64,000 nucleotides of DNA from Cyanidioschyzon merolae (taxonomy: Eukaryota). Below the pieces are notes generated by a model. The model had not been told where the DNA came from and did not search any database. It worked only from the letters and a program-made list of their open reading frames with translations. Position numbers and translations under genes: made by a program. Location: NCBI GenBank assembly GCA_000091205.1, contig AP006483.2, one strand, 5' to 3'. Below, in pieces: positions 1 to 63,975 of the stretch. The first letter of the stretch is position 1. Every line of letters starts with the position of its first letter.

Positions 1-122
1 GCGGTATGCATATCTCGTCGAAAAAAAGCGCCCGATATGAATGTACCAATCCGCTCATCAGGCCTGAATAACCATGAACTTTACACGGGGATACGGCTGC
101 ACCGATTCATCGTCCTAAACCG

Positions 123-231
123 CTACTCCCGTTTCGTCGAGAACGCACCCAGTGCTGGTCGGCTCGCTGGTGTCGCCAGTGTCACCGGTGACGTCCGCTG
201 ATGTCCATCCGCAGTATGATCATAGTCAGCA

Positions 232-268
<37 letters not shown>

Positions 269-2093
269 CAGTAGTAGTAGTCGAATGTTGCAGCGACGCG
301 TAAAACACGCGCAGTTCCTCAAAACGAGCAGCGCATGCGGCTGCGCTTCGTGTCGGAACGAGGGAGGCGATAAGCTGCCACCGGGCTGCACCTTTGGAAG
401 CACCAAAACGTCGCAGCGCCTCCTCCAGTTGCCGCTGCTCACTGACCGTCCAGGAAGCAACATTCGGTGGCGTCAGGCTGGCAATGCGTTGACCAACGCT
501 CTGTGGCGCCCGCATGAGCGCCTGCGCTTGAGCCCGTATCTCAGCCGGCGTATACCGGTGCTGCAACGCTTCCGCGATGCGCGTCCAGCGGTCTCGCGTA
601 CCAGCGGGATACTTTTTCAGTGCACGCGAGAGAAGCGCCAGCTCCTGCGCACTCCATGCATCCGCATTTGCAGCGCGCTGCGTAGACGCGGCATCAGGAG
701 CAATCGTCGCTGCCCCATTTCGGCAACCGCCCACACCGCATGACGTTTCGTGCGATCCCTCTGCGTCTCCGCTGAGCGATGACAACCGCGACGACGAGTT
801 AGAGCCGGCAGTCGTCGCGAGTGCAGCTGCATCGCCACCCGCATCCATGGTGGTGCTTCCAGCGTCTGCGAACTCGCCGCGATGCCTCTGATGCCTTTCG
901 AGCGCATCAGCGCGCCCGGCACGTCCGGTACCCTCATGAACACCAGGCGGTTGTACCAGTGTCTGGCACTGTGCCCCAGGCGTCACTCGATGATCCGTGG
1001 ACGCATGCGACGCCACTGCGTCTACTTCCACAGACGCAGTGCGCAACGCAGGGCGCACAGCTTCTCCATAGACGGCTGCATTCTGAGATAATGACGTTTC
1101 CGCGGGATGCTGCGCCTGCGCAGGCGCTCCATCCGCTGCCTCCAGCCACTGCTCCCGAAAGCGTCGCCGTGCTGCCCGCTCAGCCGCTTTGCGCTGGCGC
1201 TCAGCTTCGCGTATCCTGCGCATACGCGGATCCAACCGATAACTCCGCTCGACAAGCTGCCGAATACGTGCGCGCTCCAGCTGCTTCCGTCGCAGGCGCG
1301 CTTTGCGCTCCTGGCGTTCATGAAAGCGACGTTCCTCGCGAGTCATACTCTGATCCTCCCACAGCTGATCCGCATCTTCCGAAGGGAACTCGCGCCACGA
1401 CTCAAACGCTTGCCAGAACGCGTAAAACGCTAGCACTTCATCGTCTGGTGTCGAGGCATCGCCGAGAAGCGGCACCGGCTGCCGGCAACTCCAGCGTGCA
1501 TTGCGGCGAAACGTTGCCCCGAAGACTGCGTAGAACGCAGCTTCATCGTGCGCATCCTCTTCATCCGGGACACTATCGTCAAAGTTTCCGTCCTTCGAGT
1601 CATAAATCAGGCGACGTTGCGGGTGTAGGAGCACCCGCAGCGCCTGCTGGAGTCCCTGGAATACCTCATGCGCCTGCTGACGTGCGTTCGGAGACAGACG
1701 CACCACTCGATCCGGGTGCACAGCAAGGGATACCCGCTTATACGCTTGTCGAATATCGTCTGTGCTGGCCAGGTATCGAATGTTTTCCAGTCCCAAAAGC
1801 CGGTACCAGTCGCCTTGGCGAACAGCGATCAACAATGCGTCCAGCTTTGCCGGTTGTGGTGCGTTATCCGACACGCTCGGGTCGTCGTGCGTGCCGGTGG
1901 AGTCGGCTTCAGGCAACGCATCGCGAAGGCTGGACTCAAAGCACTCGAAGAAGGTACGCCCAGCGCACTCGAGGCGCCTCGGGCGACAGCGCGCTGCGGA
2001 CGCGAACACCGCACTAGCCGCTGATGTCGTGCTAGCGTACGGAAGCGCCCGCCTGGGTCCCGTCTGTGACCGGGATCGGCTCTCGTGCTCCAT
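123..2093 (-). CDS. DNAJC2: Zuotin / DnaJ subfamily C member 2-like chaperone (J domain followed by two SANT/Myb domains)
   Basis: 656-aa ORF starting at ATG 2093. J-domain signature ...DWYRLLGLENIRYL...IRQAYKRVSLAVHPDRV... lies about 95 aa from the N-terminus, as in zuotin. A charged R/K/E-rich middle region follows. Two C-terminal SANT repeats are present (WSAQELALLSRALKKYPAGTRDRWTRIAEAL; WTVSEQRQLEEALRRFG...RWQLIASLV). The C-terminal poly-Ala comes from the (GCT)n repeat at 229-291. Confidence 0.8.
229..291. repeat. (CAG/GCT)n trinucleotide repeat, encoding poly-Ala at the DNAJC2 C-terminus
   Basis: agcagcagcagc... run. Similar coding GCN/CAG runs occur at about 2250-2280, 3005-3030 and 15090-15125 (poly-Ala in WDR44 and GANP). 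Confidence 0.9.
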
Positions 2094-2111
2094 GCATGGA
2101 AGAGGAGTCTT

Positions 2112-5100
2112 TTACCAAGGCACAAAGTCTGCAGGGATGTTCTCGAAAACCCCAATGGTGCCGTCGTGTGCTGCAACGACGACCACCAGGCCGTCAGAAG
2201 TGGACGTTGCGCGCAGCAGTGCCGCCGTACCAGTTGCAGACGACGACAAGGGCGTTGCTGCTGCTGCTGCTGCTGCTGTTACTGGTGCTGGTGCTATTTT
2301 CGCACGTGTTGGGTAGATGGAAGTGGACGGGCTTCGCTCGATGACGTCCAGTCGATTGGTGCTGCGCTGGGGTGCAAACACCGCAGCTGTAACGTGCGCT
2401 TCACCGAACGGCATGAAGGCCTCGAAACGGTCGTTACGGTAACGACGAATACGAGGCAGTTGACTCGAACTGGTACCGTCGCGGCTTGTGCCTGCTGCTG
2501 CGCTGCTGGACGGATTCGAGGTCAATGCGGATGCGGATGCCCGTTCCGACAGCATACGGTCTGGATAGTACTGCTGCTCGGTACGGGCCGCATTCGTCGT
2601 GCTACTCGGGTTGTTGGTGTTGGTAATGGGCCCTGAGTGCCGCGTCTGCGGGTTACTCGCAAGTGCCGCTGACGCTTCGGGTGCCATTTCATGAGCTGCA
2701 GCAGCGGTGCCGCCACCTGCGTCACGCAACCGGGGCGTGCCTTTCGACCACTGGCTTAGGTGCAAGGCACAACCGGGTGCGCTGTGGTGTCCGGCTTGCT
2801 CGTACAGCACCGTATTCCAGATGTAGACGAGCCGATCCTCACTAGCCGTGATCACGTACCGAAAATCGTCACTGAAACTTGCCCGGATATGGTTCCAAGT
2901 ACAGGAGTGTCCGACGAACTTGCTTACAATGCGCAAGTCCTGAACCCGATACAACCGTATACGACTGTCGTTGGTGCTGATCAATACTTCGTAGTGCTGA
3001 GAGCTGTTGCTGCTGCTGCTGCTGCTGCCGGTGTTGCTGCTGCTGTGTGCACTCGGTGCCATGGTCGCTGCAAACTCGTTGCCGGCGTTCTGTCCAGGTA
3101 CGAAAACGTTGGAGGTCGTCGACACCGCTGGAGCGGTACTGCCGCTGCCGCTGTTGGTGCCTCGACCAGGGCCTCGATCCGGTGTTGGCATCATGGCGAA
3201 ACTGGTGATTTTGCTGCCCTTGCTATTGCGTCCGCGACGACTGTGCACCTCCAGGGTCGTGATGTACTGGAGAGCCCGTTCGCCCTCCTCGAAACGGACA
3301 ACGTTGTAGACTTTGCACTCACCGCGATACGTGCCAACGAGCGCCTGCTCGCCGTTGGGTGTAAACCCACAAGCGGTTACGAGGCCCCGCACTTCTGCAT
3401 AGTCTGAAACGTGCCGCGAGCTAATGTTCCAGAGACGAATACGCTCGTCCAAAGAGCCACTGAGGAAGAAATTCTCGTTCCGCGGATGAAAGGCGACACA
3501 GGTTACAAAATCGGCATGCAGGAACTTGCGCAACACCTGGTTGTAGTCTACGTGCCAAAGACGCACAGTTTTGTCCATAGAGCTGGATAAAAGGAAATTA
3601 TTGGCAGACCACGCGACACAGAGAACGTCACCCCCGTGTCCGCGAAACACTCGATGAGGCTCTCGGACCTCGAATAGACAGCGTGCGTACAGACGCTCGG
3701 GTCCGTCGTCCACGGTGACCGCTGCTCCGTCGCTGCTTTCCGGAGGCGGGGTCAGCAGCCTTTGAAACGCTCGCGCGCCTGCCGTAGCCGGTGAGCGCAA
3801 CCAGCTGGCAATCTCCAACAAGTCCGCATTCGAATAATTCAGCGTGTGCGGCTCGTTCTGCACTTTCCAAACCATGATCACGGCGTCTTGACCGCCAGTC
3901 GCCAGATATCGACCATCGGCAGAGAATTCCATACTCCAGACAGGTCCTGTGTGCGGCCTGAAGCACTGTACCAGACACATGTTGGCGGTGGTGTTAGCTC
4001 CTCGCGACTTGTTCGGAGCATGGACGCGCACAAAGCGCTGTGCAACACGGAATTCCCGAAGCAGCCGTTGGTACTCGCGCTTGTTCAAAGCGCTACCCTT
4101 TTCAGGGAACTTGAATAGAAAGCGCGGCCTACCGAGTACGGTCGTGTCCTCAGTGATAGCGCGTTGCGTCGCTGTACTGGCAGTAGCTGGTGCGGCGGCT
4201 TTTGTAAGCAGGCCCCGGTCGAGGCTGCCCGCGGGTGACCGAAAATCCTCGACTGTGTCGTCGACTACGGAGCCGAACGCTTTTCCATCGCCAGCGAGCG
4301 GCGTCTCTGCGGCCGCACCGGCGGTTGATGTCAGCGATGTGAGCGAGTCTGCACCGGCTTGCACTCGCTGTGTATTGAGCATTGCACCGTCTTGCCTGGT
4401 GCGGGTCGCTGCCGACTTGCTGTGCTGCAAAGCCGCGGCTTGTGTCGAGGATATCGAGGGCGACGCATGCGTCGGTGCTGTTTTCGCGCGCGGTAATAAT
4501 GAAAATGCTCGAATTCGCCCCAGTGGCGTCGAGGAAAAGGTACGTGAACGGCGACTTTTCGTACCGGAGCTTGCGCCCGTCGGATCGTCCTGGTGGGGGT
4601 CACGACGCTGCATGACGGAACGTTGTCGCCGCATCAGTTGCTGCACTGTATCCGCGGAAGTCATCTGGGCAACTTCCTGCTCAGTGAGATACCGTTCTTC
4701 ACCGGTATCCAAGTTCTTAATAAGAAATTCTACACCCTGCTGCGGCTTCCTCGAATCACCCGCGGATCGCTCTCTCATCCGAGTGATCACTTGAAACCCA
4801 GCTTGATCCACTTCAGCAGTACCGAACTCTAGAAGCAGATCTCGTCGACTCGAATCCGGAGACGGTTTGCGCAGTGGCTGGGTTAGCCTGTGCAGCAAAC
4901 TGCGTCCCGACTCTGGGGCAGTGCTGAGGCGGCCCCTCAGGTCCGTGTCACCACCTGCACTGGTGCCGATTGGTGCAGCTAAACTGCCGCTTCCGCTCCT
5001 TTCGAAAGCCGGCGGGTACGTGGCGTCATCGACACTGCGGCTGCGATGCCGCTGACCGGTGCTGGAACCCGAGCGCTGATGCTCCGGGTGCCTTGCACGC

Positions 5101-5552
5101 GTCTCCGAAACTATACTGGTCCGTTTGGGAAGGTTTTTCCCGACGAAGCCTCGAACGGAAGAGAGGAAGCCGCGGAAGCTCAACCACGAGGAGTCCGAAG
5201 CAGGTACATCGGAGCTGGAGCCCACCTCACCGAGTGAATGTCGGGCAGCAGCTGGTCCAGCGATGTCACTAGTTGATACAACGGCACCGCCAGTGCCTCT
5301 TTCGATTTCCGATACCAACGACTTGCAGTCAAGGGGTGCGGGATCCACTTCTGTGGTCTCTTGCGGAGTGGCAGCCAGGTCGAGTGCGCTACCGTAGGAG
5401 CGCAGTGACGAATAACTCATTTCAGGAAGCGCAGAGCCCCGGGAGATACGCTCAGGGCTCGAGTCAAAGCTCTCTGTTCCCGTACGCGATCTTGAATCAC
5501 TCGCGTCACTGCCGATACGTACATAACGCCCAGAGAGCGTCTTTTGATTCAT
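2112..5552 (-). CDS. WDR44: WD40-repeat protein, WDR44 (rabphilin-11)-like
   Basis: 1146-aa ORF starting at ATG 5552. The C-terminal half (HTGPVWSMEFSADGRYLATGGQD ... LLSSSMDKTVRLWHV ... FHPRNENFFLSGSLDERIRLWNI ... SRRGRNSKGSKITS ... DSRIRLY ... ASEDRLVYIWN) aligns closely with the conserved WD propeller of metazoan WDR44. The long N-terminal region is Ser/Ala-rich and disordered. Confidence 0.8.
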   Translation of the reverse strand: MNQKTLSGRYVRIGSDASDSRSRTGTESFDSSPERISRGSALPEMSYSSLRSYGSALDLAATPQETTEVDPAPLDCKSLVSEIERGTGGAVVSTSDIAGPAAARHSLGEVGSSSDVPASDSSWLSFRGFLSSVRGFVGKNLPKRTSIVSETRARHPEHQRSGSSTGQRHRSRSVDDATYPPAFERSGSGSLAAPIGTSAGGDTDLRGRLSTAPESGRSLLHRLTQPLRKPSPDSSRRDLLLEFGTAEVDQAGFQVITRMRERSAGDSRKPQQGVEFLIKNLDTGEERYLTEQEVAQMTSADTVQQLMRRQRSVMQRRDPHQDDPTGASSGTKSRRSRTFSSTPLGRIRAFSLLPRAKTAPTHASPSISSTQAAALQHSKSAATRTRQDGAMLNTQRVQAGADSLTSLTSTAGAAAETPLAGDGKAFGSVVDDTVEDFRSPAGSLDRGLLTKAAAPATASTATQRAITEDTTVLGRPRFLFKFPEKGSALNKREYQRLLREFRVAQRFVRVHAPNKSRGANTTANMCLVQCFRPHTGPVWSMEFSADGRYLATGGQDAVIMVWKVQNEPHTLNYSNADLLEIASWLRSPATAGARAFQRLLTPPPESSDGAAVTVDDGPERLYARCLFEVREPHRVFRGHGGDVLCVAWSANNFLLSSSMDKTVRLWHVDYNQVLRKFLHADFVTCVAFHPRNENFFLSGSLDERIRLWNISSRHVSDYAEVRGLVTACGFTPNGEQALVGTYRGECKVYNVVRFEEGERALQYITTLEVHSRRGRNSKGSKITSFAMMPTPDRGPGRGTNSGSGSTAPAVSTTSNVFVPGQNAGNEFAATMAPSAHSSSNTGSSSSSSNSSQHYEVLISTNDSRIRLYRVQDLRIVSKFVGHSCTWNHIRASFSDDFRYVITASEDRLVYIWNTVLYEQAGHHSAPGCALHLSQWSKGTPRLRDAGGGTAAAAHEMAPEASAALASNPQTRHSGPITNTNNPSSTTNAARTEQQYYPDRMLSERASASALTSNPSSSAAAGTSRDGTSSSQLPRIRRYRNDRFEAFMPFGEAHVTAAVFAPQRSTNRLDVIERSPSTSIYPTRAKIAPAPVTAAAAAAATPLSSSATGTAALLRATSTSDGLVVVVAAHDGTIGVFENIPADFVPW

Positions 5553-6099
5553 AACCTGCTCGGCAGCGTTGCCGCTCAGCGTGTTCCGCTCTGTTCCGCG
5601 TTATTTCCGGAACCTTACGCAAGGTCTTGAGTGCTGGGTTCCACGGAGACACACACACACACACACCGGTTCGCAAGCCTTGCACGCTCCACTGAAAGCA
5701 ACCTTGTCCGCGCCACGACAAGCTCACCCGCTTTTCCACCTGCAATAAGTGCACTGGAGCTCCTCAGGAAGCTCAGGTTCCTGGAATTTTACTCGTACAA
5801 ACGAGTTTCTTACGATCCGCGTTGACTCGTTCCGTTGGCGTCGCACGAGCACTAGTGCCAGCTCGCAAAGCAAAACACCCCTGACCGGAATGACGACACT
5901 CGGGCGCCACTGGCCTGTCTCCAGCAAGCTTCGCAAGAAGCCACTGACCACAGACTGATAAAGTGCGTTAACGAAAACTTACCTCGACGGAAGCAGGCAC
6001 CGCTAAGGGAGTAAAGAGCGCGTTCCTCCGAGCTACAAAGGCAGCTCACTGGTGTCGACGTCGAAACCCGTACAAAAACTCCAGTATCTAACCAGTAGG

Positions 6100-8600
6100 T
6101 TCTGCAACTGCTTCCCTGCGCACAAGTCGGCGCGATAGAGCACGCCACACCGATCGCCTGCTTATCGATGCACCGACGTGCACAAGTCTCCCAGTCTTTT
6201 TGACCGGCTCCCTGTTACCGGTTTCAACTTGTTCTTCTACGTTTCTACCTTGAGAGGCTGACCGACAAAGTTGTCTCTCGTCAGTTCCAGGAGTCTCTTC
6301 TCCAGCACGGCATAGCTCTTTATATTGATAGAAGCACTAAAGTCTCGGTTCACGCACTCCAGGCGTTTCTCGTCGCCGCTTGTACTCACCAGTGCAGGGA
6401 GTCCTCGAACCTGTGCCCTGCTTTCCATTTCCTGCCCTTCCGTCACCGCTCCGTACTTTTGGATATCCCCAGGGCTCCTTTGGCACTTTTCCATCTCAAC
6501 CCTCTGAAGTGTACACCCTAGCTCGTGATGAATGGATGACGTTCCGAACGCATTTATCAGTATCGAAACGAAAAGGTGTGCGCAGTCCTTGTACGCTCGT
6601 GTCGACGGAGCTGGTATACAACCTTTTGTGGACGCCCAGCGTCCTGATCCGTATGCTAATACGAGCATTTTACGCTTGTCCTCCTTGAGGGCCCTCAACT
6701 CATTGAAGAACTTGTCAAATGCACGCTGCTTTCCTCTGTGCAGACGCATATGCAGACGAGCCCATCTGGTCTTGGTGTACTGTTGCCACAGCGCCTCCCA
6801 ATGAGCAGTACAAACTTTCATGAATTCCAGAAAAGCCTCAAAGTCCGCTCCTCGGCTAGTCACCTCGCTCAAAGCTTCCAGGTGCTCTTTCACTCCTCGA
6901 TTCTATTCCTTAATTTTTTCCTCGCGTTCATTTTTCCGGATTCTCGATCGTATCTTGCTCTCGAGAAATTTAAAAGACACATGTCTTCTGACGTAAGCTG
7001 CCGTCAGTGCCATCTTCCGCACGCTTGGGTGCTGCGATGGTCATGATATTCGTGTCCCCAGGGTCCGCGCCAACGACATTGTCGTTCTCCTGGACCTCCT
7101 GCATCACAGGATCCGCCTCGTATATATGTTCATGTTTCGTCGCGGGCGAAGCCGGGGACGGAACTGGACGATCTACCTTCAAGCACTTATAATCTACAAA
7201 TATGGCTACTCCATCACTTTTGATCATCCCAGGGAATAACTTTTGCTTGCTCACTTTGAGGCGTTCGAAATCGAACATATTCTTCCAGTACGTCTCCCGG
7301 TTTTCACCGGAGAACTCGAAATTCCTTACATCGAACTCTGGACTGATCTCCTTCATGATGCCATGAAGGACGCTCGAGTCGATTGCCACAATATCTGACT
7401 TGACGGTGCACAACGGAGCGACATGGAAGCGCTTACCCATTAGGGCAGCCTCCCGTCTCTCCGACTCTTCATTTTTTCCCCACTCAGCTTCATCTCTGCC
7501 TTGCGTTCGAGTTCTCGGTCCAAAAACACAAAATACCGTAGAATGAGGCGATAGTATCTTTCCGTATCCTTTTTCAACTCTGATATCTTTTCTACTGGAT
7601 TCGCTAGCCCCAGTACCGCACGACGCTCTTGAATAGACGCACGGATTCCAGAAGCTTCATTCCTTCTCATGTGTGATGTCTTCTTGTCTACGGATTCGAT
7701 CCTCTGTTCATTCTCCCTATCGTTCGTGATGCCATCGATGGTGACCCATCTCGCCCTGTGAGGCAGGGCCGCCTATAATGCAAACGCGGTGCGTATCATG
7801 AAACGTTCGAGGTTCATAGTCATATCGCTCATCAGGTACGTGGGGTACTTCATCGCTCCGTAGGTGCGAATTCGCCAGTCTCCCCTCTATCGAGTACCGT
7901 TGAGGCGGTATTCGGCGTACTTTTTGTGCAGTATACACACTCGCGCATTTTTCGTCGACATATCCCAGGTGCTTACCATCCGGTAGCGTATAACGGTCTC
8001 GTTGAAAAATTCCTCCGGAACCTCGACTTTTTTGGTGTCCGTCACGTTGTTGTATATCTCTTTTACCAAATGCACTAGTACTGGAAAAGCCTTTACAATA
8101 CTCAAGGAGTACGACTCGACACGGTTTCCGATGGCCTCTCGCAACTTCTGCTTGTACGGATCCTTGATACATCCAAGAAAACGAGCTTTCACTACCATCT
8201 CGTCGTACTGTCGTCTTTGATGCAGGCATAGACGTCTGGGATCCTGTCTCAGCTTCTTGGACGTGTCTTGTTCCTCTTTGCTCGGCACTGTTCTCCGTTT
8301 TCTTCCGGCAGCCGGTGACACCAGGCCTCCAGGATCCTCTACTTCCTTCTCCACAACTTGCCTTTTTTCTATAATTTTAGATTGAATGCTCTTTGAACGC
8401 CTCTGCTGTAAACAGTGTAAAATCACTTGAATTCACTAACTTGAGGGTCGAAGCATAAGTGAACTGAAAACTATACTTTGTTATGACTTGAATGTAAATA
8501 CAAGTTGTGCGTTAGACACCAAGTCAACGAATGATCAGGATCGCATATCCCTTCAATGCCGAGATGCTCGTCGCGTCTGATGCCTCCAAGATGCGGAAAT
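6100..8600 (-). mobile_element. Fanzor/TnpB-like element, copy A (degenerate; interior of window)
   Basis: Homologous at DNA and protein level to the elements at 54.5-57.4 kb and 60.6-63.1 kb. It shares the conserved 5'-flank block (8460-8520, ...gaactgaaaactatactttgttatgacttgaatgtaaatacaag...) and the conserved block just 3' of the stop (6150-6236, ...gacgtgcacaagtctcccagtctttttgaccggctcc...). Boundaries are approximate, taken from where inter-copy similarity fades. Confidence 0.6.
6237..8426 (-). pseudogene. TnpB/Fanzor-like RuvC nuclease ORF broken into at least 5 frame fragments (7887-8426, 7717-8229, 7440-7670, 6970-7440, 6237-6893)
   Basis: Fragment 6970-7440 ends in the RuvC-I-like motif VVGADPGDTNIMTIAAP. 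Fragment 6237-6893 carries ...HELGC..EKC...C followed by the RuvC-III-like VNRDFSASINI. The expected RuvC-II YEFRTS motif reads INAFGTS here (acidic residue lost). Frameshifts occur at about 7440 and about 7890, with a gap at 6894-6969. Confidence 0.6.
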
Positions 8601-9404
8601 GCGCTAACCGACCGGACTATATAGAGCAAAGAACAGAAACGAACCATTAAATAGCAACGAGATGGCAATTTCTTTCCCCTCTACGGTAAACGTTAGAAAA
8701 TGGCAAACGCTTTCCGTATAATCGAATGTCTACAGGTGGCATGTCCCGCGTGCCGGACGAGTCTGCAGGGCTAATGCTTCGTGCTCGCCCCAGTGGCAGA
8801 TGCTTTATTGAGACCTGCGCAACTCGTCCGAAACGCTGCTTATTCTGGGACTAGGAGCGGCTAGCTTGCATCTGGGCATCGCGCTTGTCTCAGCGGACTC
8901 CTCGTGTATTCCTTCGCGCTGCCGCATGCAGTAGATCTGTCTGAACAGATTCCAAGCCCCCAGAATAATAATGAATCGCGACCCGGTATCGCGCTAGCCA
9001 CGCCTCGAGCCAACGTCATCACTCGCATGGTAAAAACGATCTATCTCCGTGATGCTTGTGCTCCAGCGGCATAGGCGCTCCTGCAGGTACAGCACGACAG
9101 GCACTCGGCGCTCGATCGAACGCACAAAACGAATTGTATATCCGAAAAGAAGTATAGGTCATGCAACTTGGAGAAAGGATGCAGCAGCACGATGTACGCC
9201 TCCTCGAAAGCCAATATCCATCCAATCCGCAACCTGAAATCCAAGGTCAACGGACACTTTTCAGCCATCGACAGAATTCCCGCTGCGCTACGCCGCGCGT
9301 ACCCGCAGGCTGCGCGCAGGCGCCCCGTTTCCAATCGATTCGAGCGTTTTCAAACGCAGTGCTCCGTATAGGCACGAGTTCCAGCGCCAAAAGTGCGTGA
9401 TAGA

Positions 9405-9704
9405 ATGCCGGCTCAGCAGATACAGTACTCGGAAAAATATTATGATGATACATACGAGTACCGTCACGTTATTCTGCCCCCAGATATTGCGCGTCTTTTG
9501 CCGAAGAACAAACTTCTCAGCGAGGCAGAGTGGCGGAGCCTTGGCGTGCAGCAGTCACGGGGCTGGGTTCACTACGCTATCCATCGACCAGAGCCCCATA
9601 TTCTCCTATTTAGACGCCCGTTGAACTACTCGCAGGGTGCTACTACTGCGACGACGGGGCTATCGCAGAACCCTTCTGAATCTGCCTCACACGCCGTTCC
9701 GTGA
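9405..9704 (+). CDS. CKS1: Cyclin-dependent kinase regulatory subunit CKS1
   Basis: 99 aa from ATG 9405; the track ORF begins at GTG 9393. [68 protein letters not shown] is near-identical in pattern to eukaryotic Cks1/Suc1. Confidence 0.9.
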
Positions 9705-10614
9705 ACAGCAGAGGATGCGGGGAATCGCTCACCGGCCGCGTCGTTCGGGTGACAGCGGTAGCATTCCCCAGCAAAAAACGTCTTGATGCAAGCGGTACTA
9801 GATGCTTGTATTCGGTTGCGTTGAAGTTACTGCATTCGTTCTTCTGAAACTGTCGCGGAATGAGACCGGGTGTGGTACGACTGGTCAGGGGTGCTTTGCA
9901 GCAAGCCCAGGCCTCGTTTGACGGGAGTATGCGAGCTAGCGCCCCAGCGCGCTCGCCACCTCAGGTACACGCTTTCAGTTCAATGCCTCTGGTTGTCTGA
10001 TTGGCATGGTCCGCTTCGGATTCGGTCTCAAGAGTTGTGACGCTGCGTGCGCCGCCTTGCCCTACTTTCCGCAGCAGCAATGCTGCGGGCCTGCTCGGCA
10101 ACCGTGAGAGTTGACGTTGTCTGGGGTTCGCTGAAGACGCACAGGCAACTGATTCCCCTGAAAAGGTTCGAAGTAGCGGTGATTGCGCTCCAATGTCCAG
10201 AGATGCTACGCAAATAGCGTTATAGCGGATCTTTTGGACCAACAGGGACGAAAGCATGGATTGCGCTTACCCGACAGCACCTGGACGATGCTTACAACCT
10301 GACGAGTGAGGGCCCCGTGTGCTCGTAATGAAAATTTGCACAGTTTAATGTGAACGCAATTTCGTAAAATCGAATGCTCACATCTAGCATCTGCACCTGA
10401 AGCGGTCGAGGAGGCAGCGTCTCTGTCGCGGCGCATCAGACATGGACGCCAATGCAGCAGCCCTGTTACAGGAACGGATTGCACACAGCGGGTGTACGTA
10501 AGCTGTTCAAGCAAGTGCCCGTCCCCCGCCTGCAACGCACAGGGCGGGATCGCCTGCTCAATAGTGCGGTATCCGTGCGCCCCAGCACGATGCTAGCCGC
10601 TCTAGAGATGGGTG

Positions 10615-11226
10615 TTACCTGGCGCTTTCCGCCGCTTCATCCGCCTGCTCCGCGAGCTCAACACAGTGTCGAACTCCAGGCTGCGGCGGGTTCAACGCAG
10701 GCTCTGACGACTTCGAGAACGACCAGTCCAGGAACGCCCCAAAAGCACCGAGCACCGCGCAGATACCGACCCCAGTGCCGAGCGAGCCAGCGCGAACCCC
10801 AAACGCGCTGCCCGCGAGACAGCCGCCTATCGCGCTATTCCAGGGGTCTTGTTTGTCACCACGAAGCGCTCGTGCTGAGTATTCGCCCACGACGAACAGA
10901 CCGCCAATGCTGGACAGGAAACCAGCGTGCGCAGCTACGGTGCGCCACGGTGACTGCAGAGCCGGGTGCACAGGCGCACCGCCTTGTGCGCTCGTCGCGG
11001 ATGTGAAGTCTACAGGCCTGACGCTCCTCGAGAGACCCTGGAAGCTAAACGGGGCACGACGTGGACGCTCGCCCGGTTTCGTGGCTTGGAACTGCGCGAG
11101 CGGGTTCTGCTCGTAGCTGTGCCAGTAGACGATGGAAGCACCCATTGCAGTTCCTAGCAGAGCACCTGTTACCATGCTCTGTACCAGCGTAGGCAAGAAG
11201 CCTGCATCATCCTGATCCGAGGCCAT
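10615..11226 (-). CDS. Tim17/Tim22/Tim23 (PRAT) family mitochondrial inner-membrane translocase subunit
   Basis: 203 aa from the first ATG (11226); the track start at 11574 is a TTG. The Gly-zipper membrane segments NSAIGGCLAGSAFGVRAGSLGTGVGICAVLGAFGAFLD are typical of the Tim17 family. I cannot assign a subfamily. Confidence 0.55.
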   Translation of the reverse strand: MASDQDDAGFLPTLVQSMVTGALLGTAMGASIVYWHSYEQNPLAQFQATKPGERPRRAPFSFQGLSRSVRPVDFTSATSAQGGAPVHPALQSPWRTVAAHAGFLSSIGGLFVVGEYSARALRGDKQDPWNSAIGGCLAGSAFGVRAGSLGTGVGICAVLGAFGAFLDWSFSKSSEPALNPPQPGVRHCVELAEQADEAAESAR

Positions 11227-12246
11227 GAACCGATCCCTCGTCTCGGTGGTAAGCGCCGCGGTGCTGCTGCCGCACAACTGCAGCTGTGCGCGATCTGCTG
11301 CCGTCGAATGCCGTCGACGACGCGCTGTGCCTGCGGGAACGCGCAATGCCCTGCAGACGTCATTCGTTTGGGCGTCGTTGCTCCGGAAATGGGCGTCAAA
11401 GGGTACGCTCCTTGCGACGAGCTTGCTTGTTTTGGTCCCTGATACTGTGCTTAGCGTTTCGCGGAACCCGCTTCCGCATACATTCCCAGAATGGCGACGA
11501 CGGCGCAGGAACACGGACGAGGTCCGAGCGTCCGAGAATGCCAACAAGCGGTAAGCGTTTCTCCAGCGCTTCAAGTCTCATTGTTGTACCGCGACGCGAC
11601 CAAACATACCACGTACTAGAAAAGAGTACGAACGCGCCCTGAGCTGCATATCGTGACCGGAACACCCATGGCGCTGCAGCACCACGTTCGCTAGGGGCTT
11701 CAGTTTTCCGATCGTATATAGAGATGTTCTCGGGGATGCGTCCAGTTGTCATATCTACGGAGGATCGTGCCAGGCACATATTCATCGCTCCGAGCACGCA
11801 TAATCTGCCTATGCTTCGCTTTATCCGTATGTGACAGCATGCCGATCAAGTGCCCCGTACCCATAAAGCCAATCCCCATCGAAGCCGTATTTTCATAGCA
11901 CTCGCATTCGGAACGCTCCCAGGATAGACGCACACTCCAGGTAGGACGTGTACGCTGTACACACGAGTCTATGCATGCACGATTCACTGATTTCTTCGAG
12001 CAAATGTTCATGCATGCATGCATGCACTGCGATGGACACGTCACCCGCAGCCTCGACGAGTGCACGCATCGTGCGCACGCATCGTCGGGCAACGGCTGTG
12101 CGTACAGCGCTCGCTGCGCGCACACGCTCCCTCCGCACTCATTGATTCATTCTCTTTCGTGTTTTTCACGCGACAACGTGCGTGCGCTACTGTACAGGAA
12201 CGTGCGCAAGAGCGTTCCGGTACACCCCGGAGCACTTGGTGCACCC

Positions 12247-13086
12247 ATGGGTAACCGACCCTCCACGGAGCGACGGCTGGCGGGTGATGCAACTCGGCAA
12301 CCGCCACCGCCGCCACCGCCTGGCAGGTCTGTGAATGCACGCAACGGGCCGACTTCATCGACGTCGACCACGTCAGTACCGTGGATGCCGCAACAAGCTC
12401 CAGGCCCTGCATCTGAGTCTCCGCCAACCTTTACAATGGCGGCAGGCACGCGACACATATACGCACCGAGTCTGCCGATACGGCCGCTGACCGAAGTACC
12501 CTACTATCCGTACCTGCGGTATCGGGTTGTTGTCGAAGACGAGTACGGTTCGTTGCTCGTAGTGACACGGGAGGGTCTTCGTCGTCAACGGGATGCCATT
12601 CGAGTTGCTTGTGAAACGGAAGCAGATCCTTACGCACTCATCGCGCTGGCCACGTGGCAGCAACGCAAAGCACGCGTGAGTCCAGTGGAGCTCGACCAGG
12701 TTTGTCCGCCGCAGCGCTTCGCATCGCTGGAGGCCAACGACGCCCACACTGTCGAGACTACAGCTGCGCAGACTTGATCTATCTGTCTGGAGAACTTCGC
12801 ACCGGAGTCTGCTGTTCGAAAACTGCCCCGATGTGGTCATGTTTTCCATGACGATTGCATTCGCGGTTGGGCATGCCACAAGCGTGCACAGTGCCCGGTG
12901 TGCCGAACCTGGGTTCTTGACGACGCTGACATGTTGCGACGTTCCATGGCCGAGGCAGCGATCAGGGCTGAGCTGCAACATGCAGCCCTTGTCGAAGAAC
13001 GAATACGGGAGTACTTGCGTCGTCAGGTTGCTTTATCCAGAGCATGCGGTTGCCGAACCGATACACAGGTTCCGAACGGAACCTGA
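12247..13086 (+). CDS. RING-H2 zinc-finger protein (N-myristoylation-type MGN start), interrupted by an in-frame TGA at 12775-12777
   Basis: The same frame continues on both sides of the TGA: ...DAHTVETTAAQT[TGA]SICLENFAPESAVRKLPRCGHVFHDDCIRGWACHKRAQCPVCRTWVLDD.... The stop sits exactly where the first Cys of the C-x2-C RING pair is expected. A poly-Pro and Ser/Thr-rich region lies upstream. Confidence 0.55.
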
Positions 13087-13097
13087 ACAGTCTCGGG

Positions 13098-15087: not shown

Positions 15088-15126
<39 letters not shown>

Positions 15127-53391: not shown

Positions 53392-54614
53392 GAAGCAGCG
53401 ACATCTTGAGCTCCACGGACTGCGTTGGCGGACGTGTCAACTGTTAATTTGCTCACAGTCTAGATCACGTCTATGCTGATACTCTGTTGCGACAATATTC
53501 CACTCATGTTCACAAGACCCGAGAGTACGAATGAACGAATGCGTTAATGCGGATAAATGTGCGCGGAGTGTCATCTGAGGTCCTCTTCGGGGACTGACAT
53601 TCAGAGATCAGATGAACAGAAAGAATGGACCAGAATTTGCTTTTGGAACGTAAAGGAATGATTACCTCTGCCTATGAGCTTGCCCCCGATGATAGCCTTG
53701 GTGGTAATGGCGGTATATTGGTACCCTTTCTTCTCTTTGTAGTCAGAATACGGTTTCCGAGTTGCATGTAGCGAGTGTGTCTGCAGTAGGGCGTCTGGAA
53801 CTGTTTTTTTAGTTTCGTTGTACTTGAGCACATTCTAGTCCTGAGGAGCGGTTCTGGAGCAAGTTTGACTCGATCCGTACAACCGCAAATTTCACCAAAA
53901 TCCGATTCCTCTTGAGGAAAAGCTAATATTCGTGACGCCTGCATACGGGCTCCGGCTCCGCTTGGCACGAATGGAAGCAGGGCCGCCAGCCTCACAGCGC
54001 ACTTATAGCTTGTTCTGTCGGTCGAGGCATCGTCTCGATATATTCACCACTGTTGCCTACCGTTGCTCGTAGGCTACGTCAATAAAACCGTCTGAAGTGT
54101 TGTGCTGATTTCCGGATTATGTTTATGTCTTGTACACTAGAAAAAAAACGAGAACGAAGTGGTGGTAAGCCGTGAAGACGTAGATGCGCAGTTACCGTTA
54201 CTCGGTCCAGAGGCACACCATGCCAGGCAGTCACATCCTGGGACGAGCTGTACGCTATGTAAGCATTAGCACAGCACCTTGAGCACAGCTGGAGGCATTC
54301 TAGAAGCGGCCAGTATCGATTCTAAACAATTGATCTTGTTCTATATCATTGCAAACAAATTGGTAAACGGATCCGTTGCTAATAAATGGACACAGGGCCC
54401 TCGGAAGATAGATAAACGACAAGGCAGCTGATGATGTATCGAATACAGAAGAACTCGAGTTGCCCATTTTCCACATTTTCTGTCACATCAGTCCTGTTAC
54501 AGCCATGGCAGCGATATCTTCACGAAAAGCATCAACTATTACCACATATACTCTAGGTACTCTTCGCAAATACGGTCTGAATAAGCGACGTAACGCGCCC
54601 GCACCGAACGCTTC

Positions 54615-56943
54615 TCAAACGACGAACGTCGCCGCCGGCCGTGTACGGTAGTGGAGGGAAAACCGCGCCTTGGACAAATCGTCTCCAACTGATGTGCAGA
54701 CGCCCCCCGCCTTTCTCGACGAGCCACCCACTACTGCTTCCAACTTCTTCTCATATAGTTCGACTTTGAGAGGTTGTCCAATAAAATCCTCTTGTGTCCA
54801 CTCTGGAGGTCGTTTCTCCAGCACCGCACATCTCCGTATATTGATAGCGGCATGAAAATCTCGGTTCACGAACTCCATACATTTCGTGCCGTTGGGAGCT
54901 GTACTCACCAATACGAGTAACCCTTGAACTTTCGCCTTCCTTTCCATTTGCTCCTCCGCCAGCGGTCCGTACTTTTGCAATTTCCTCAGCGCTCTTCTGG
55001 CACTTTTCCATCTCCACCCTCTGAAGCGTGCAGCCCAGTTCTTGGTATGTATAGGACGTCCGGAACTCATATACAGGTATCGTAACGAGACGCCGGGCGC
55101 ACTCCTTGTACAGCTTCGTCGCTGGAGCTGGCGTAGTTCCTTTTCTGTTCTTCCAGCGCCCTGCTCCATACGCTTCTACGAGCCTCTGACGGTCATCCCC
55201 CTCAAAGGCGCTCAACTGATTGAAAAAATTCGCAAACGCCCGCTGCTTCACACCGTATAGATTCATTCGCAGACGAGCCCACCGGGGCTTTCTATACTCC
55301 TCCCACAGCGCATCCCAATGGGCAACACGAAATTCCATGAATTTCCGAAAAGCTTCATGGACCGCTCCGCGGCTCGTCGCCTCGCTCAAAGCTTCCAGGT
55401 GATGCTTTATTCCTGCATTCCACGTAACGATTATCATCCTTGCATTCACTACAACGGATTCTCGATAGTATCTCGCTCTCGAGAATCTCAGCAGACGCAT
55501 GTCTTTCTGGCGTAAATTACCGTCCATGCCATCTTCCGCACGCTTCGGTGCTGCGATGGTGATGATATTCGTGTTCCCAGGATCCGCGCCAACCACAATG
55601 TCTTTATCCTGCACTTCCTGTGTGGCAGGATCCGCCTCTTTCTTTCCTTGATGCTTCGTCGCGTCAACCATAAAGTCGTTATCCTGCACATTCTGTTCGG
55701 CAGGATCCGCCTCCTTCTGACCTTCATCCTTCACCGCGCCAACGACACGGTCGTTATCCTGCACTTTCTGCATCACAGGTTCCGCCTCTTTCTCTTTTTC
55801 ATCCTTCACCGCGTCAGCGACAAAGTCGTCATCCTGCACCTCCTGTGTCGCAGGATCCGCTTCTTTGATTTTTTAATGCTTCGCAGAGGGCGAAGCGAAA
55901 GGCACAATCGGACGGTCCACTTTCAAGCGCCGATAGTGTACATACAAGGTTACTCCATCGGTCTCGATCAACGCAGTGAATACCTTTTGGCTTCTCACTT
56001 TGAGCCGTTTGAAATTGTAGATGTTCTTCAAGTACGTCGCCCGGTTTTCACCGGTGAAGTCATCCCTGCTAACAGTGAACACTGGACTGATCTCCTTCAT
56101 GATGCCGTAAAACACGTCCGAATCGATATTCACGAAATGTGACTTGATGCTGCACATTGGAACCACGTTGAAGCGCTTACCCATTAGGACAGCCTTCCGT
56201 CTCTCCCAATCTTCTTTTTTTTCTTCACTCAGCTTCATCTCCGCATTTCGCTCGAGTTCTCGGTCCAGAAACACGAAATAGCGCAGAATAAGACGATAGT
56301 ATCTTTCCTTATCTTTTTTCAACTCTGATGTCTTGTATGTTGGATTCGCCGGCCCCAAGATTGCACGGTGCTCTTGTATAACCGAATGGATTACAGAAGT
56401 ATCATTCGTGCTGTCGTTAAACGCCTTCGTGTCGACGAATTCGACATCACCTTCATGCTTGCGATCGTTCTTGATGCCATTGATAATCACCTATACTCCT
56501 TTGCGAGAGACGCCCGGGTAAAGTGCAAACACGGCGCGTATCATGAAACGTTCTAGGTTCATTGTCAAATGGTTCGTCAGGTTCGTGAGGTTCTTCATCT
56601 CCCCATAGTCGTAAATACTCCGGTCCCCCTTGTATCGAGTACCCTCGAAGCCGTAAAAGGGATGTTTTTCGTGGAGGGCATGAACCCGCTCGTTTTCCTC
56701 CCGCGCTTCCACTGTTGCAAGCATCAGGTATCGAATAAAGGTCTCGTCGAATAACTCGTCCAGAATCTCGACCGTTTCCATGTACGTCACGTCGCGATAC
56801 ATATCCCTCGCAAAATGCATCAGCCCTGACCATGCCTTGATAATACTCTTGGAGTACGAGTCGACACGTTTTTCGATAGCGTCTCGCAAATTTTCCCTGT
56901 AAGGATGCTTGATATGATTAAGAAGACAGGCTTTCACCATCAT
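54615..56943 (-). pseudogene. TnpB/Fanzor-like RuvC nuclease, about 770 codons: one in-frame TAG (56491-56493) and at least two frameshifts (fragments 56491-56943, 55873-56490, 54751-55839, 54615-55169)
   Basis: RuvC-I motif VVGADPGNTNIITIAAP (Asp codon 55582-55584). RuvC-II-like VYEFRTSYTYQELGC...EKC. RuvC-III-like CMEFVNRDFHAAINI (Asp codon 54858-54860). The long N-terminal region is homologous to copy A. The protein end GQPLKVELYEK is conserved in all copies. Confidence 0.65.
55579..55875. repeat. 75-bp tandem repeat (about 3.5 units) inside Fanzor-like copy B, encoding 25-aa acidic repeats (QDNDxVVGAVKDEGQKEADPAEQNV)
   Basis: The units atcctgcac(t/a)t(c/t)ctg...caggatccgcctc(t/c)tt... 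begin at 55606, 55681, 55756 and 55831. Copy A has a single unit at the homologous position. Confidence 0.85.
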
Positions 56944-58416
56944 CTCATTCTACAGTCATCTTTCCCGCCGCCTTCGACCTAGGGCCTCCCGCTTTCGGTT
57001 CTTCTTCTTTTCCTGTTCTTCTGGACTCGGCTCTGTTTTTTGTTTTTATTTCTGGCAGCAGGCGACACTGGGCCTCCGGGATCGTCGACTTGCTTTTTCA
57101 TAGCTTTTCTTTTCATTTTTTTGTGTGAAAAAGAACGCTCTTTGAACCCTTCTATTATATACTGCGAGAAATCAATTGAATATGTTTACTTGAGGGTTGA
57201 GACACAATCGAACTGGAAACTATGATTTGTTACGACTTCCACGCAAATACAGCTTGCCCGTTAGAACATCAAGAAAACGTGTCGTCACGGTCGCGTTTCT
57301 CTTCGAAGGCGACAGATGCGTCGTGTCTCGCAAGTGCCATACTTGGAGATGCACGTATCGAGCGCGCCATACAGGAAAAAGGACAGTGACCTACGATTTA
57401 CAAGAAACGATATAAAATTTTTTCCCGCTCTACGATAAGCGTTTAAGGGGAAATAGATCGCCGTTCTATCGGAAGCTTATGTTCGAGGCGGAAGGTCCCG
57501 CGAGCCGGTCGAGTCTACCGGGCTAGAGCTCGGTATCCCTCTTAAGTGGCTGCTGCCGCTGCTGCTGCAAGACCTGCGTAGCTCGTTCGCAACGCATTTT
57601 ATCCTGAGACTATGCACAGGATGCTGCGTTGGGCCTCGCCCTGGTCGCAGTGGAACCCTAGTACAGCACTTCGCGCTGACGCAGGTAGTACGTCTTTCTG
57701 CGCACTTTGCATGTTCCCAGAATGACAAATAGCCCTGATTCCGTTTCAAGTGAATCATTCCTCGAGCGGACGCCCTTAGTGGTATGGCAAAGCCGTTCTG
57801 TCTCTGTACAGCACCTGCTTGAGCGGTATAAGCGCTACAGCGGGTGCTCACAACAGGCTCGGCGCTCGATAGAACATACGAAACGACCAGTATATCAGAG
57901 AGGTAGTATGGATAATGGGACTTGAGGACAGGTGCACTATGATCGAGATATCCCCGGAAGCCATCGTGCGTTCCGAATTCTGGGATGCATGGGCAATGCA
58001 AACGTTCTTTCATCGAAAAGAAAAAAACGCTCCGGAGGCGGACTCGTCATCGAGACGCGCATCGCTCTGGATCGAATCTCCGGAAGGCGCTTCTGGGCGA
58101 TCGCGAAAGCGCTCAAGCGCATCTTTGTGTCCTCAACGGATAGCATGATTTATTCGGGGCGCTCAGTCTCGAGCGTTCCCTCTGACTTAAAGCAATAGCT
58201 TCGTGGATCCTACAGCTGTGTTGTCAAAGAGCACTGTACCTAGTTTTGGCGAGGCCTATAGTGCTGGAGAACAAAACGATCACGGGTTTGTAGCGATCTC
58301 GGCACCAGTGCTGGAAACAACCCTGCACTGGAGCTCGGGCGATCTGAAACCTGTAGTCGGACTTTTTCGAGGATCTGTCTCGCAAGGAAACAAATCGTGG
58401 AACTGTGCTCTTTGGA

Positions 58417-60589: not shown

Positions 60590-63060
60590 TCTGAGGCCGA
60601 AACGTCTCGGACGACCTCCGCACCCGACGACGACAACAAACACCTTTCAAAACAAAAACGTTGCTGCTGGCAGTGTACAGTACTGGCGAGAAACTCGCCC
60701 TAGACCAAAAGTCTCCAGCTGACGTGCAGACGCCTCCCCGTCTTTTTCGACCGGCCACCTACTGCGGGTACCCTTGTTTCTCATACAGTTCCAGTTTAAG
60801 AGGTTGTCCAACAATGTTCTTTCGTGTCGACGCTGGGAGTCTTTTGTCTATTCCCGCACATCTCCGTAGATTGATTCCAGCGTTAAAGACTCGGTTCGCG
60901 AACTCCATACGTTTCTTGCCGATGGTAGTCGTAATTAGTAATGCAAATAGTCCACGAGCTTCTCCCCTCCTTTCCATTTCCTCTCCCGTCAGCTGTCCCT
61001 TACTTTTTTATATCATGAGGACTCCGCTGGCACTTTTCCATCTCCACCCTCTGAAGAGTACATCCCAACTCATGGTGTGTATACGATGTTCGGAACTCAC
61101 CTACAGGTATCGTAGAGAAACACAGTGCGCATTCTTTGTACATTCCTGCCGTTGGAGCTGGTGGAGTCCCTTTTTTTCGGAGCCCAGCTCTCTACTCCAT
61201 ATATAACAACGAGCCTCTGACTTGATCCTCTTTCAAGGCGTTCAACCCATTGAAAAAGTTCGCGAATGCGTGATGCTTACCACAGCACGGATTCATACGC
61301 AAACGACCCCAGCGGGGCTTTGTATACTTGCCCTACAGCGCCACGGAATGAGCAACACGAACTTCCATGAAATTCAGAAAAGCTTGAATGTCCGCTCATC
61401 GGCTCGTCACCATGCTCAAAGCCTCCAGGTGATCCTTCATTGCTACATTCCACGTAACGATCTTCTTCCTTGCATTCATTACACCGGATTCTCGATAGTA
61501 TCTCTCTCTCGAAAACCTCAAAAGACGCATATATTTCTGATGCAAGGTGCCTTCGGTGCAATCTTCCCCGAGCTTGTGAACAGCGATGGTTCTGATATTC
61601 GTGCTCCAGGGACTAAGGCCGACGCCAAAGTGGTTTTCATGGGGCTTATACGTTCCATAGCCCGTAAACCTGTGTTCGTTCTTCGGCAACGCCCGTAACG
61701 AAGACGGGATAGGACGAGCTGCCTTCAACCGCTGATGGTGTACACATATGTGCGCCACATCGAGATCGATTGTTCCAGTGAATAACCTTTTTTTGGCCGG
61801 TTCGGGACGCTTGAAATCGAAGATATTCTTCTCGTAGGCGTCCCGATCTTCACCGGAGACCTATTTGTTGATTACATCGAGCTCTGGACAAATCTCTATC
61901 GTGAAGTCGTGAAGTACTACGGAGTGGTTACTCACAAAATGTGACTTGAACGCGCATAACCGACCGACATTGAAGCGCATCTGGAGAAGACTTCAATGTC
62001 GTTTCTCCCACTCGTCATTTTTTCCTCACTCAGCCCCATGTCGGCTCTGCGGTCGAGGTCTCGGACAGAAAACATGAACCAGGGCAGGATGAGAGAGTAA
62101 CAACTCTCTCCGTCGTTTCTCATATCCGAGAGTTTTCTCTTGGGTTGACATGACCCAAGACCGAACGATGTTTTAGAATAGTGGCGCGAATTACAGGAGC
62201 ATCATTCATTATCCTGCGTGATGTCCTCTTGTCGACGAGTCTGATCTCCTGTTCATGCTGGCGATCGTTCTTCATACCATCGATGATTGCAAGCATCGCT
62301 TCGCGAAATATGCCCGGGTACAGCACAAAGGCGACGCGTATCATGAAACAATCGAGGTTTGCCATTCTATGGTTCCTCATATTCGTGAGGCACCTCTTTG
62401 CCCTGTATTCGTAAATGTCTGCGTCACCCTTGTGTGCAGTACCACTGAGGCGGTATTTGGCCTTATTTTTAAGGAAGGCATGCACTCGCTCACTTATCCC
62501 CGATGTTTTCCCATTAAAAACAATCAGGTAGTTGATGAAAGTCTTTTGGAAAATTTCTTCCGGAAACATCACTTTTGCGATGTGCGTTACGTCCCGATGC
62601 AGGTCGCTGTCCAAATGCCAACGTCCTAAAGAAAAGCTCCAAACATACCCGGCCTACGATCCGCCACGGTTTCTGATAGCGTCTCGCAACAATCAGTCGT
62701 ACGGATCATTGATATGTTGGAGAAGATAAGATTCCACCACCATCTTGTCGTACAGAAGTCACAATTTCGGCCTTCGATGTAAGGCCCCCCATGTTGCTTC
62801 TTCTTCTTTTCCTGACCCTCTTCGCTAGGCAATATGTCTCATTTCATTCTGACATCCGGCAGCACCGGCCACCCCAAACCCACTACATCATACTACATAA
62901 GTGTCAGATTTTTTGGGAGAACATCTCATTGGACGCTTCTGCTTTGAACGGCGAGAATCTGGTGAATAGAGTTACTTTAAGATTGGAACGCCACTGAAGC
63001 CAAAACTATACTTTGCTACGATTCGATCGCAAATACAAGTGGCCCCGATAGAGCAGTCGC
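60590..63060 (-). mobile_element. Fanzor/TnpB-like element, copy C (most degraded; 1-3.4 kb from telomere)
   Basis: ORF fragments 62120-62614, 61932-62123, 61396-61758 and 60759-60977 are homologous in order to copy B (...ESCYSLILPWFMFSVRDLDRRADMGLSEEKM..., ...STNIRTIAVHKLGEDCTEGTLHQKYMRLLRFSRERYYRESGVMNARKKIVTWN..., ...MEFANRVFNAGINL...NIVGQPLKLELYEKQ). The conserved 5' block lies at 62990-63050 and the conserved 3' block at 60600-60758. Confidence 0.6.
60759..62614 (-). pseudogene. TnpB/Fanzor-like nuclease remnant (RuvC-I Asp lost: STNIRTIA; RuvC-III reads NRVFNAGINL, Asp lost)
   Basis: See the element feature above. There are multiple frame breaks and gaps between fragments, and the catalytic Asp residues of motifs I and III are substituted. 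Confidence 0.55.
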
Positions 63061-63975
63061 TCCAGTAGAGGTCATTACCGCGTTTTTCTTGATCGGAGAG
63101 GCGCACGTTGGGTGACGTGACGGCCAGATTTCGCGATGCGTTACCAGGACGCACGACAGAGAAAATGCAAAAAAATTAACCAATATGCACAAACAGGATA
63201 GCAAGTACTATTGCAACCTAGTATAAACGTAAAGAAGATGATTTCGCGTATGGTCAAAGTGTTACATTTAATCGGGAGGTCTGCGTGCCGCGAGACTACC
63301 GGCCTGCCCTCCGTGTGACTTTCAGTGGAGAGTGATATGAGACACTTGGGCAACTCATCCAAAACGCAATTAATTTCGGGACTAGGAGCAGGCATGCTGC
63401 GTCTGAGCACTAACACCGTCGCGGTGAACAGATAGTACGCCGTTTTACGCTACCGCATGCAAATCGTCTGCAAGATCCGCTTGGAGGCTCCAAAGAAAAT
63501 AAATCTCCCTGATCCCATGTAGCATGAACCAAGCCCCTTCCAACGCGCCCAGTGGTATGTCAGAGCTGCCCTGCTTCCGGAGTGCACCCACAGCGGCGAT
63601 AGAGAGGCTACAACGGGTGCTCAAGGTAGGTAAACGGCGCACGATAGAAAGTCAGATACAATCAGTACAGCCGAGATTAGGTAAATGCGACAAAAAGTAC
63701 CGAAATTGTTCAGCGTGACGAAGGATTTTCCGAAACAAGTATCAATCCGGCAATCTCGGCGTCTGGTCAGTAGAACAGGCTCTGTCGAAACAAACCAAAG
63801 CAAAGCGCTGGAAGGAGATCCATAAGGGCACTGGTGTGCTGGATGTAGATAAGAAAGATGCGTATTTGCTCAGATCGTACCGCCGGAAAAATACCCGAAC
63901 GAACCTGGATTGGTAGACATCGCTCTGACAGATGCTTTTTCTCTGAGAACACCGCAGTAATGGGGCATTGCGTCG

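Follow-up and report, generated by a model that had tools for sequence, protein, structure and literature searches.

A 64,000-nt stretch of the Cyanidioschyzon merolae genome (contig AP006483.2, assembly GCA_000091205.1; hereafter the window) raises the question of what a broken Fanzor-like gene is doing between a WD40-repeat gene and CKS1, and whether the alanine that it carries in place of a catalytic glutamate marks a functional variant, a sequence recruited by its neighbors, or simple decay. Three mutually homologous copies occupy the minus strand of the window; tblastn with the open reading frame (ORF) fragments of the copy in question, copy A, places them at ~6.2-8.4 kb (A), ~54.8-57.0 kb (B), and ~60.8-62.9 kb (C), with E-values of 1e-12 to 1e-56 per fragment. 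The initial annotation of this DNA had described copy A as a third homologue, located between the WD40-repeat gene and CKS1 and ~56 kb from the telomere; that placement is borne out, at a distance of 55-58 kb. Here, we conclude that copy A is very probably an old, dead insertion of CMe-1A, a published Fanzor1 family, in the divergent promoter region between the two genes.

Copy A is a full-length, degenerate CMe-1A element

CMe-1A is a single C. merolae Fanzor1 family of ~150 copies, each sharing ~80% identity with a consensus of ~3 kb (Bao & Jurka 2013, Mobile DNA 4:12; PMC3627910). The same account reports no terminal inverted repeats (TIRs), leaves target site duplications undetermined, describes some copies as still intact, and recognizes the 5' 635 bp as another repeat, TE-N2_CMe; its supplementary files provide a 3,169-bp consensus and the 734-amino-acid (aa) CMe-1 protein. 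The observation that the family reaches beyond the chromosome end is true and already known from the genome-wide copies of the published account.

Globally aligned to the whole 3,169-bp consensus, copy A occupies 6098..9270 on the minus strand (window 9270-6098) at 82.0% identity with 24 indels, matching the published ~80%, and blastn pairs consensus 9-3092 with window 9261-6172 at 81.5% identity. Membership of the family is thus observed directly. The 3' boundary of the copy is uncertain, with the last ~75 bp (6098-6171) poorly aligned to the consensus. Its internal order is that of CMe-1A: a non-coding 5' module equivalent to TE-N2_CMe (8629..9270, minus; consensus 1-635 by coordinate map), the rest of the 5' leader (8357..8628, minus; consensus 636-905), and the remnant of the 734-codon Fanzor1 ORF (6145..8356, minus; consensus 906-3110), the latter two placed by alignment to the consensus. 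As in the published family, no TIR is evident at the element junctions. A search for coding function found no long ORF in the 905-nt 5' module of the consensus, and a 178-aa ORF in the 5' module of copy B is not conserved. The span first assigned to copy A, 6100-8600, takes in the ORF but only part of the non-coding 5' module, leaving ~670 of its 905 bp outside; the element is better annotated as 6098-9270.

The ORF of copy A is a Fanzor1 remnant

Two ORF fragments of copy A carry the RuvC motifs, GADPGDTNI in ORF 6970-7440 and both INAFGTS and NRDFSASINI in ORF 6237-6893. By the family profile, the catalytic aspartates of RuvC-I (7063..7065, minus) and RuvC-III (6342..6344, minus) are kept, and the alternative RuvC-II glutamate has been lost through a GAG>GCG change (E>A; 6549..6551, minus). 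The initial annotation had reported both retained motifs, as well as VYEFRTS in copy B at the position of INAFGTS, and all of these readings stand.

Frameshift-corrected copy B, used as a database query, recovered 38 metagenomic relatives, including intact ~700-aa proteins at 36-38% identity, and profile searching across 1.84 billion cluster representatives recovered 2,575 relatives at E <= 1e-3. In a family alignment and profile of 64 sequences (A3), the invariant columns include the DPG aspartate (D422 of the relative P0037), the glutamate of VDEFRT (E593 of P0037), and the R/N/N of NRDxNAAxNI. Run against PDB sequences with hmmsearch, A3 matched exactly three groups, all of them Fanzor1: Parasitella PpFz (9cf0, E = 6e-23), Spizellomyces SpuFz (8gkh, 1.7e-15), and Guillardia GtFz (9cer, 2e-11). 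The vDPGrtnI, vdEFRTt, and nRDlNAAiNI segments of the profile fall in register with the motifs of the solved enzymes, and the profile puts GADPGDTNI, INAFGTS, and NRDFSASINI of copy A on the same columns. The RuvC-I aspartate of copy A, within its DPG motif, is aligned to the DPG/DPN of PpFz, GtFz, and SpuFz, and its E>A column is aligned with the glutamate of IDEFRTS (PpFz), LDEYKTS (SpuFz), and VPEHYTS (GtFz). Once its frameshifts are corrected, copy A matches the family hidden Markov model (HMM) at 1e-139. The motif assignments, for which an HMM alignment had been set beforehand as the test, held.

The fold agrees with the profile. When an AlphaFold2 (AF2) model of P0037 built with A3 (pLDDT 88, pTM 0.86) was compared with the PDB by Foldseek, PpFz, SpuFz, and GtFz ranked first (E = 1.7e-17 to 1.7e-13; template modeling (TM) scores 0.5-0.7), followed by Cas12 enzymes, Cas12f among them, and Fanzor2. 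An 8-sequence alignment gave an unusable AF2 model (pLDDT 38), and a 3-sequence profile matched no PDB sequence; the PDB matches required the 64-sequence profile. Many of the metagenomic relatives also carry a precomputed Pfam label, PF26935.1, which did not appear in our own scans with a Pfam set that does not include this model.

The DPG motif and the alternative glutamate (E_alt) are recognized signatures of Fanzors (PMC10711439). Fanzors lack the canonical RuvC-II glutamate, which is replaced by Gly/Pro, and rely on the alternative residue farther downstream; this residue is needed for cleavage, as the E467A mutant of ApmFNuc is dead (PMC10530073). In CMe-1, the glycine within VVAYGAGRW fills the canonical RuvC-II position, and codon 603 (VDEFRTS) specifies the alternative glutamate. 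The family, therefore, has the alternative glutamate and copy A, with alanine, does not; this is a failure of the enzyme that leaves the homology intact. The initial label "Fanzor-like" is correct: copy A is a member of the published Fanzor1 family CMe-1A, whose profile matches three Fanzor1 enzymes with the three RuvC motifs aligned, and the fold of a family member is concordant.

Decay of the Fanzor1 gene

The lesions of copy A can be read directly from its sequence. Relative to the consensus, the former start codon has changed from ATG to GTG (8354..8356, minus); four 1-bp deletions shift the frame (window ~7480, 6987, 6917, and 6202); and four premature stops interrupt it (7887-7889, 7773-7775, 6903-6905, and 6237-6239, minus). 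The ORF fragments that are left include those of 218, 156, and 76 aa, and the initial count of "at least 5 frames" was a fair one. At the 3' terminus, ~25 nt, terminal hairpin included, are deleted or diverged. In contrast to the published copies that are said to be intact, copy A no longer contains a nuclease ORF and is non-coding. Its protein identity to the CMe-1 consensus is 70%, and its three codon positions have diverged to nearly similar degrees (0.175/0.131/0.204).

The substituted acidic residue, which the initial annotation had emphasized, is one lesion among many. We surveyed the 80 best environmental CMe-1A copies, and in none was the consensus frame free of both stops and frameshifts (0/80; the best had 0 frameshifts and 1 stop). 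The catalytic triads of the broken copies included GGD, GED, DDD, DVD, DGD, NEV, DEN, DEE, and HED; the changes E>G, E>D, E>V, D>G, and D>N all occur, along with others of this kind. Because triad substitutions are this common in decayed copies, the E>A of copy A is not special, and the emphasis placed on it is unsupported; because the start, frame, and 3' end of the copy are also destroyed, we regard it as a lesion of neutral decay rather than a functional variant.

By analogy with characterized Fanzors, an intact CMe-1A would encode a nuclear Fanzor1 of ~734 aa with a basic N-terminus, a eukaryotic homologue of TnpB that would act as an RNA-guided DNA endonuclease. Its single RuvC site would be assembled from the aspartate of DPG, the relocated glutamate of dEFRTS, and the aspartate of NRDxNAAxNI; a guide RNA would come from the 3' end of the element, and cleavage would occur where a target-adjacent motif (TAM) and a match to the guide coincide. 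RNA-guided, TAM-dependent cleavage is known for other Fanzors (PMC10530073), and this literature suggests that the ancestral protein had RNA-guided nuclease activity and an essential alternative glutamate. Copy A, with no start, a broken frame, alanine for the alternative glutamate, and a lost 3' end, meets none of these requirements and, as a nuclease gene, is inert.

Some caveats belong beside the conclusion that copy A is a dead CMe-1A insertion. The copy may still be transcribed to some extent, or its DNA may have a regulatory role. Pfam and NCBIfam detected no TnpB or Fanzor domain in either the raw ORF fragments or the frameshift-corrected proteins and, because these models are silent, the homology of copy A to Fanzor rests on the deep profile and the fold. 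The fold was modeled on P0037, a relative of ~37-41% identity, and not on copy A. Finally, the ratio of non-synonymous to synonymous substitution rates (dN/dS) of copy A versus the consensus, a check that the initial annotation had suggested, is 0.50 and, hence, below 1. We interpret this value, which is not proof, as selected divergence in active lineages before death plus neutral decay after it. Nothing that contradicts the explanation of copy A as a dead CMe-1A element was found.

Copy A in wild populations and its possible reuse

To place copy A in a population, eight Joint Genome Institute (JGI) metagenome contigs were obtained via the neighboring CKS1 protein. Seven of the eight align colinearly to window 1-19,700, with 99.2-99.4% identity, and carry the same broken ORF fragments (218, 156, and 76 aa), the same NAFGTS, and the same E>A substitution; in the motif regions, they also carry further non-synonymous polymorphisms (I/M, F/L, Y/C). 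The density of single-nucleotide polymorphisms (SNPs) is 0.57-0.79% in the element and 0.3-0.7% in the flanks. The dead copy is, by direct observation, fixed in the sampled wild Cyanidioschyzon populations. No empty pre-insertion site was present among the contigs with CKS1, all eight of which contain an element at this locus; dating of the insertion by synteny, another initial suggestion, was not achieved, given that no empty site was found and that contig divergence is too shallow.

The remaining contig, L004 (Ga0506605_000001, locus 1-9846), has a right flank that is 99.3-100% identical to the window, changes within the element to another CMe-1A copy, which matches the ORF part of copy A at 74.7% identity, and consists of unrelated sequence to the left of window 6251. 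It is either a repeat-induced chimeric assembly or an ectopic recombinant between CMe-1A copies, and we reject it as an older orthologous lineage on these grounds.

The presence of copy A in all sampled strains could also be explained if it had been exapted as DNA, with its 5' TE-N2-like module or its 3' part serving as promoter or regulatory sequence for CKS1 and the WD40-repeat gene. The WD40-repeat gene (2112..5552, minus; named WDR44 in the initial annotation) has its start codon 546 bp from the 3' end of copy A, and CKS1 (9405..9704, plus; PF01111 CKS) is transcribed divergently from the element with its ATG 135 bp from the 5' end, such that copy A fills 3.17 kb of a divergent intergenic region of 3.85 kb; moreover, the copy is present in 7/7 colinear environmental contigs. 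The sampled strains, however, are only ~0.5% apart, which makes shared presence uninformative on selection, and the SNP density of the element equals or exceeds that of its flanks. We, therefore, consider exaptation improbable. It is compatible with the explanation of copy A as a dead insertion and does not exclude it.

That copy A might instead be a domesticated or catalytically dead Fanzor, retained as a nuclease-free RNA-guided DNA binder through recoding or internal starts, is effectively refuted by its reading-frame lesions (four frameshifts, four premature stops, no ATG, and a longest fragment of 218 aa) and is made more remote still by non-synonymous polymorphisms segregating inside the motifs, the degraded 3' terminal region, and the frequency of triad substitutions in other broken copies.

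Copies A, B, and C as independent insertions

Copy B (54609..58015, minus) is a full-length CMe-1A, 83.5% identical to the consensus, that keeps the D-E-D triad and has 3 stops and frameshifts. Copy C (60641..63787, minus) is 75.0% identical, has 9 stops and many frameshifts, and reads S-E-V at the triad (RuvC-I D>S, RuvC-III D>V). The three copies are 70.8% (A-B), 64.5% (A-C), and 66.4% (B-C) identical in DNA and 56%, 47%, and 49% identical in protein, respectively. The initial figure of ~65% aa identity between A and the other two is, thus, wrong; proteins range over 47-56%, and 65-71% is the DNA range.

These DNA values lie at the background of the family. Pairwise DNA identity within a set of 56 near-full-length environmental copies has a median of 74% (5th-95th percentile, 67-79%), and the closest sampled relative of copy A is <=77% identical to it. 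Any two of the three copies agree on a non-consensus base at 36-59 sites, near chance expectation. As pairwise identity matches the family background, the comparison supports A, B, and C as unexceptional copies from an old family of star-like structure, inserted independently and not duplicated from one another. The earlier proposal of old, independently decaying insertions without segmental duplication is, in this respect, well founded.

An origin of the three copies by segmental duplication, or of copy A by mis-assembly or chimerism, has next to no probability: three copies on the same strand of one 64-kb window and the switch within L004 would fit it, but identities at family background, shared derived bases near chance, and nothing shared outside the elements argue against duplication, and mis-assembly, raised at the outset as a possible refutation, is ruled out because seven independent contigs carry the window arrangement (at about 99.3%) and its lesions.

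Within copy B, a 225-bp in-frame insertion (~55660-55888, minus) is a tandem expansion of a 75-bp unit encoding 25 aa (KEADPATQEVQDNDFVV-like). The unit sits just upstream of the RuvC-I motif and is present 2-6 times in environmental proteins, with expansions in P0001, P0006, P0011, and P0024; it is a variable-number acidic linker within the Fanzor1 ORF.

Comparison with known systems

The closest characterized relatives are the solved Fanzor1 enzymes (SpuFz1, 8gkh and 9ceu-9cez; PpFz1, 9cf0-3; GtFz1, 9cer-t), which share the DPG, dE(F/Y)xTS, and NRDxxA motifs with CMe-1 at a sequence identity of just 13-15%. They differ in the region between RuvC-II and RuvC-III. The TS motif of the solved enzymes is followed by CP(K/R)C, and a second cysteine pair precedes RuvC-III; the CMe-1 consensus has THHELGC and LLALVST, respectively, at these sites (residues ~603-672), such that the CxxC...CxxC ligands of the zinc finger are largely missing. 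A zinc finger occurs in "many" Fanzors and TnpBs, not all, and is no strict defining feature (PMC10711439). In the more distant relatives of the family alignment, a single cysteine (LLWC) is found among the zinc-finger positions.

Prokaryotic TnpB (IS200/IS605, IS607) and Cas12f resemble the CMe-1 family in their one split RuvC domain and overall architecture, and family members produce weak, sub-threshold Pfam matches to the Cas12f1-like TNB domain (E = 0.002-0.02). The TnpB and Cas12f proteins have the canonical RuvC-II glutamate, where the CMe-1 family has VVAYGAGRW and a relocated glutamate, and D-hydrophobic-G in RuvC-I, where the family has DPG; relative to TnpB, the CMe-1 family is further set apart by its eukaryotic host, a basic N-terminus resembling a nuclear localization signal, and no TnpA. 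Fanzor2 (e.g., ApmFz2, 9b0l) shares the rearranged catalytic site, but its fold match is far weaker (E = 2.8e-3; TM 0.18-0.26), and Fanzor2 proteins are shorter and IS607-associated.

Element ends and the terminal hairpin

Across independent environmental CMe-1A copies (L009-L088), conservation extends past both ends of the published consensus, with shared flanks of (C)TGATTTYTTT on the 5' side and TT(T)GYTG on the 3' side. Therefore, either the true termini do not lie at the Repbase ends or a target/TAM-like site adjoins them. The 5' flank of copy B (58016-58045, minus), GGAGCGTTTTTTTCTTTT, resembles the 3' end of the element itself, GCAGCGTTTTTCTTTT. The last ~22 nt of the element (consensus 3145-3169; copy B 54609-54635; copy C 60641-60665; columns 231-255 of alignment A4) could form a hairpin whose sequence differs by subfamily: CGTTTTTC-TTTT-GAAAGRCG, CGTTCGA-CTT-TCGAACG, CGTTCTA-CTT-TAGAACG, or CGTCCT...AGGACG. 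A further stem, GCCGCCA...TGGCGGC, lies upstream of it. Pair counts for the terminal hairpin, in two registers, did not rise above shuffled or slid controls, and neither did covariation. A search for an omega-RNA-like structure yielded a weak RNAalifold consensus (-5 kcal/mol) over the last 250 nt of 33 copies, and an Rfam scan of 5500-9500 returned one chance-level match alone.

These features invite a broader, and in our judgment rather doubtful, proposal that concerns the CMe-1A family and not copy A. CMe-1A would be one part of an extensive Fanzor1 clade, poor in zinc fingers and comprising at least 2,500 clusters at 50% identity, whose elements lack TIRs and feature a subfamily-varied 3' hairpin and T-rich borders; mobilization would be hairpin-dependent and single-stranded (IS200/IS605- or Helitron-like), with a defined target/TAM and with cis signals carried by the TE-N2 module. 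Such a route may apply in a eukaryotic host with no known transposase for the family. Members of the wider family are mostly found on ~3-kb contigs.

Surroundings of the locus

The window has a G+C content of 54.7%, and its right end (63976-64000) consists of AATGGGGGG repeats, which we take to be the telomere repeat. The 5' end of copy C (63787) is only ~200 bp from these terminal repeats. An isolated 65-bp fragment of the CMe-1A 3' end (consensus 3073-3137) is located at 46211-46275 (minus) with 87.7% identity. In the vicinity of copy A, a (CA)9 microsatellite occupies window 5648-5665, ~100 bp upstream of the start codon of the WD40-repeat gene, and WD40 Pfam families were recorded for the orthologue of that gene across the eight CKS1-bearing contigs (L001-L008).

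Significance

Copy A is a decayed member of a published family and, as such, is already known in kind: the CMe-1A family has been in the literature since 2013, together with its copy number, age, and assignment to Fanzor1, and Fanzor biochemistry and structures followed in 2023-2024. What is added here is a clean annotation of one dead copy, the recognition of its substituted RuvC-II residue as a decay lesion, and the fixation of that copy in wild populations. Any further value may lie only in leads at the level of the family, namely the missing zinc-finger ligands of its Fanzor1 protein and element ends reaching past those of the published consensus, with a terminal hairpin.

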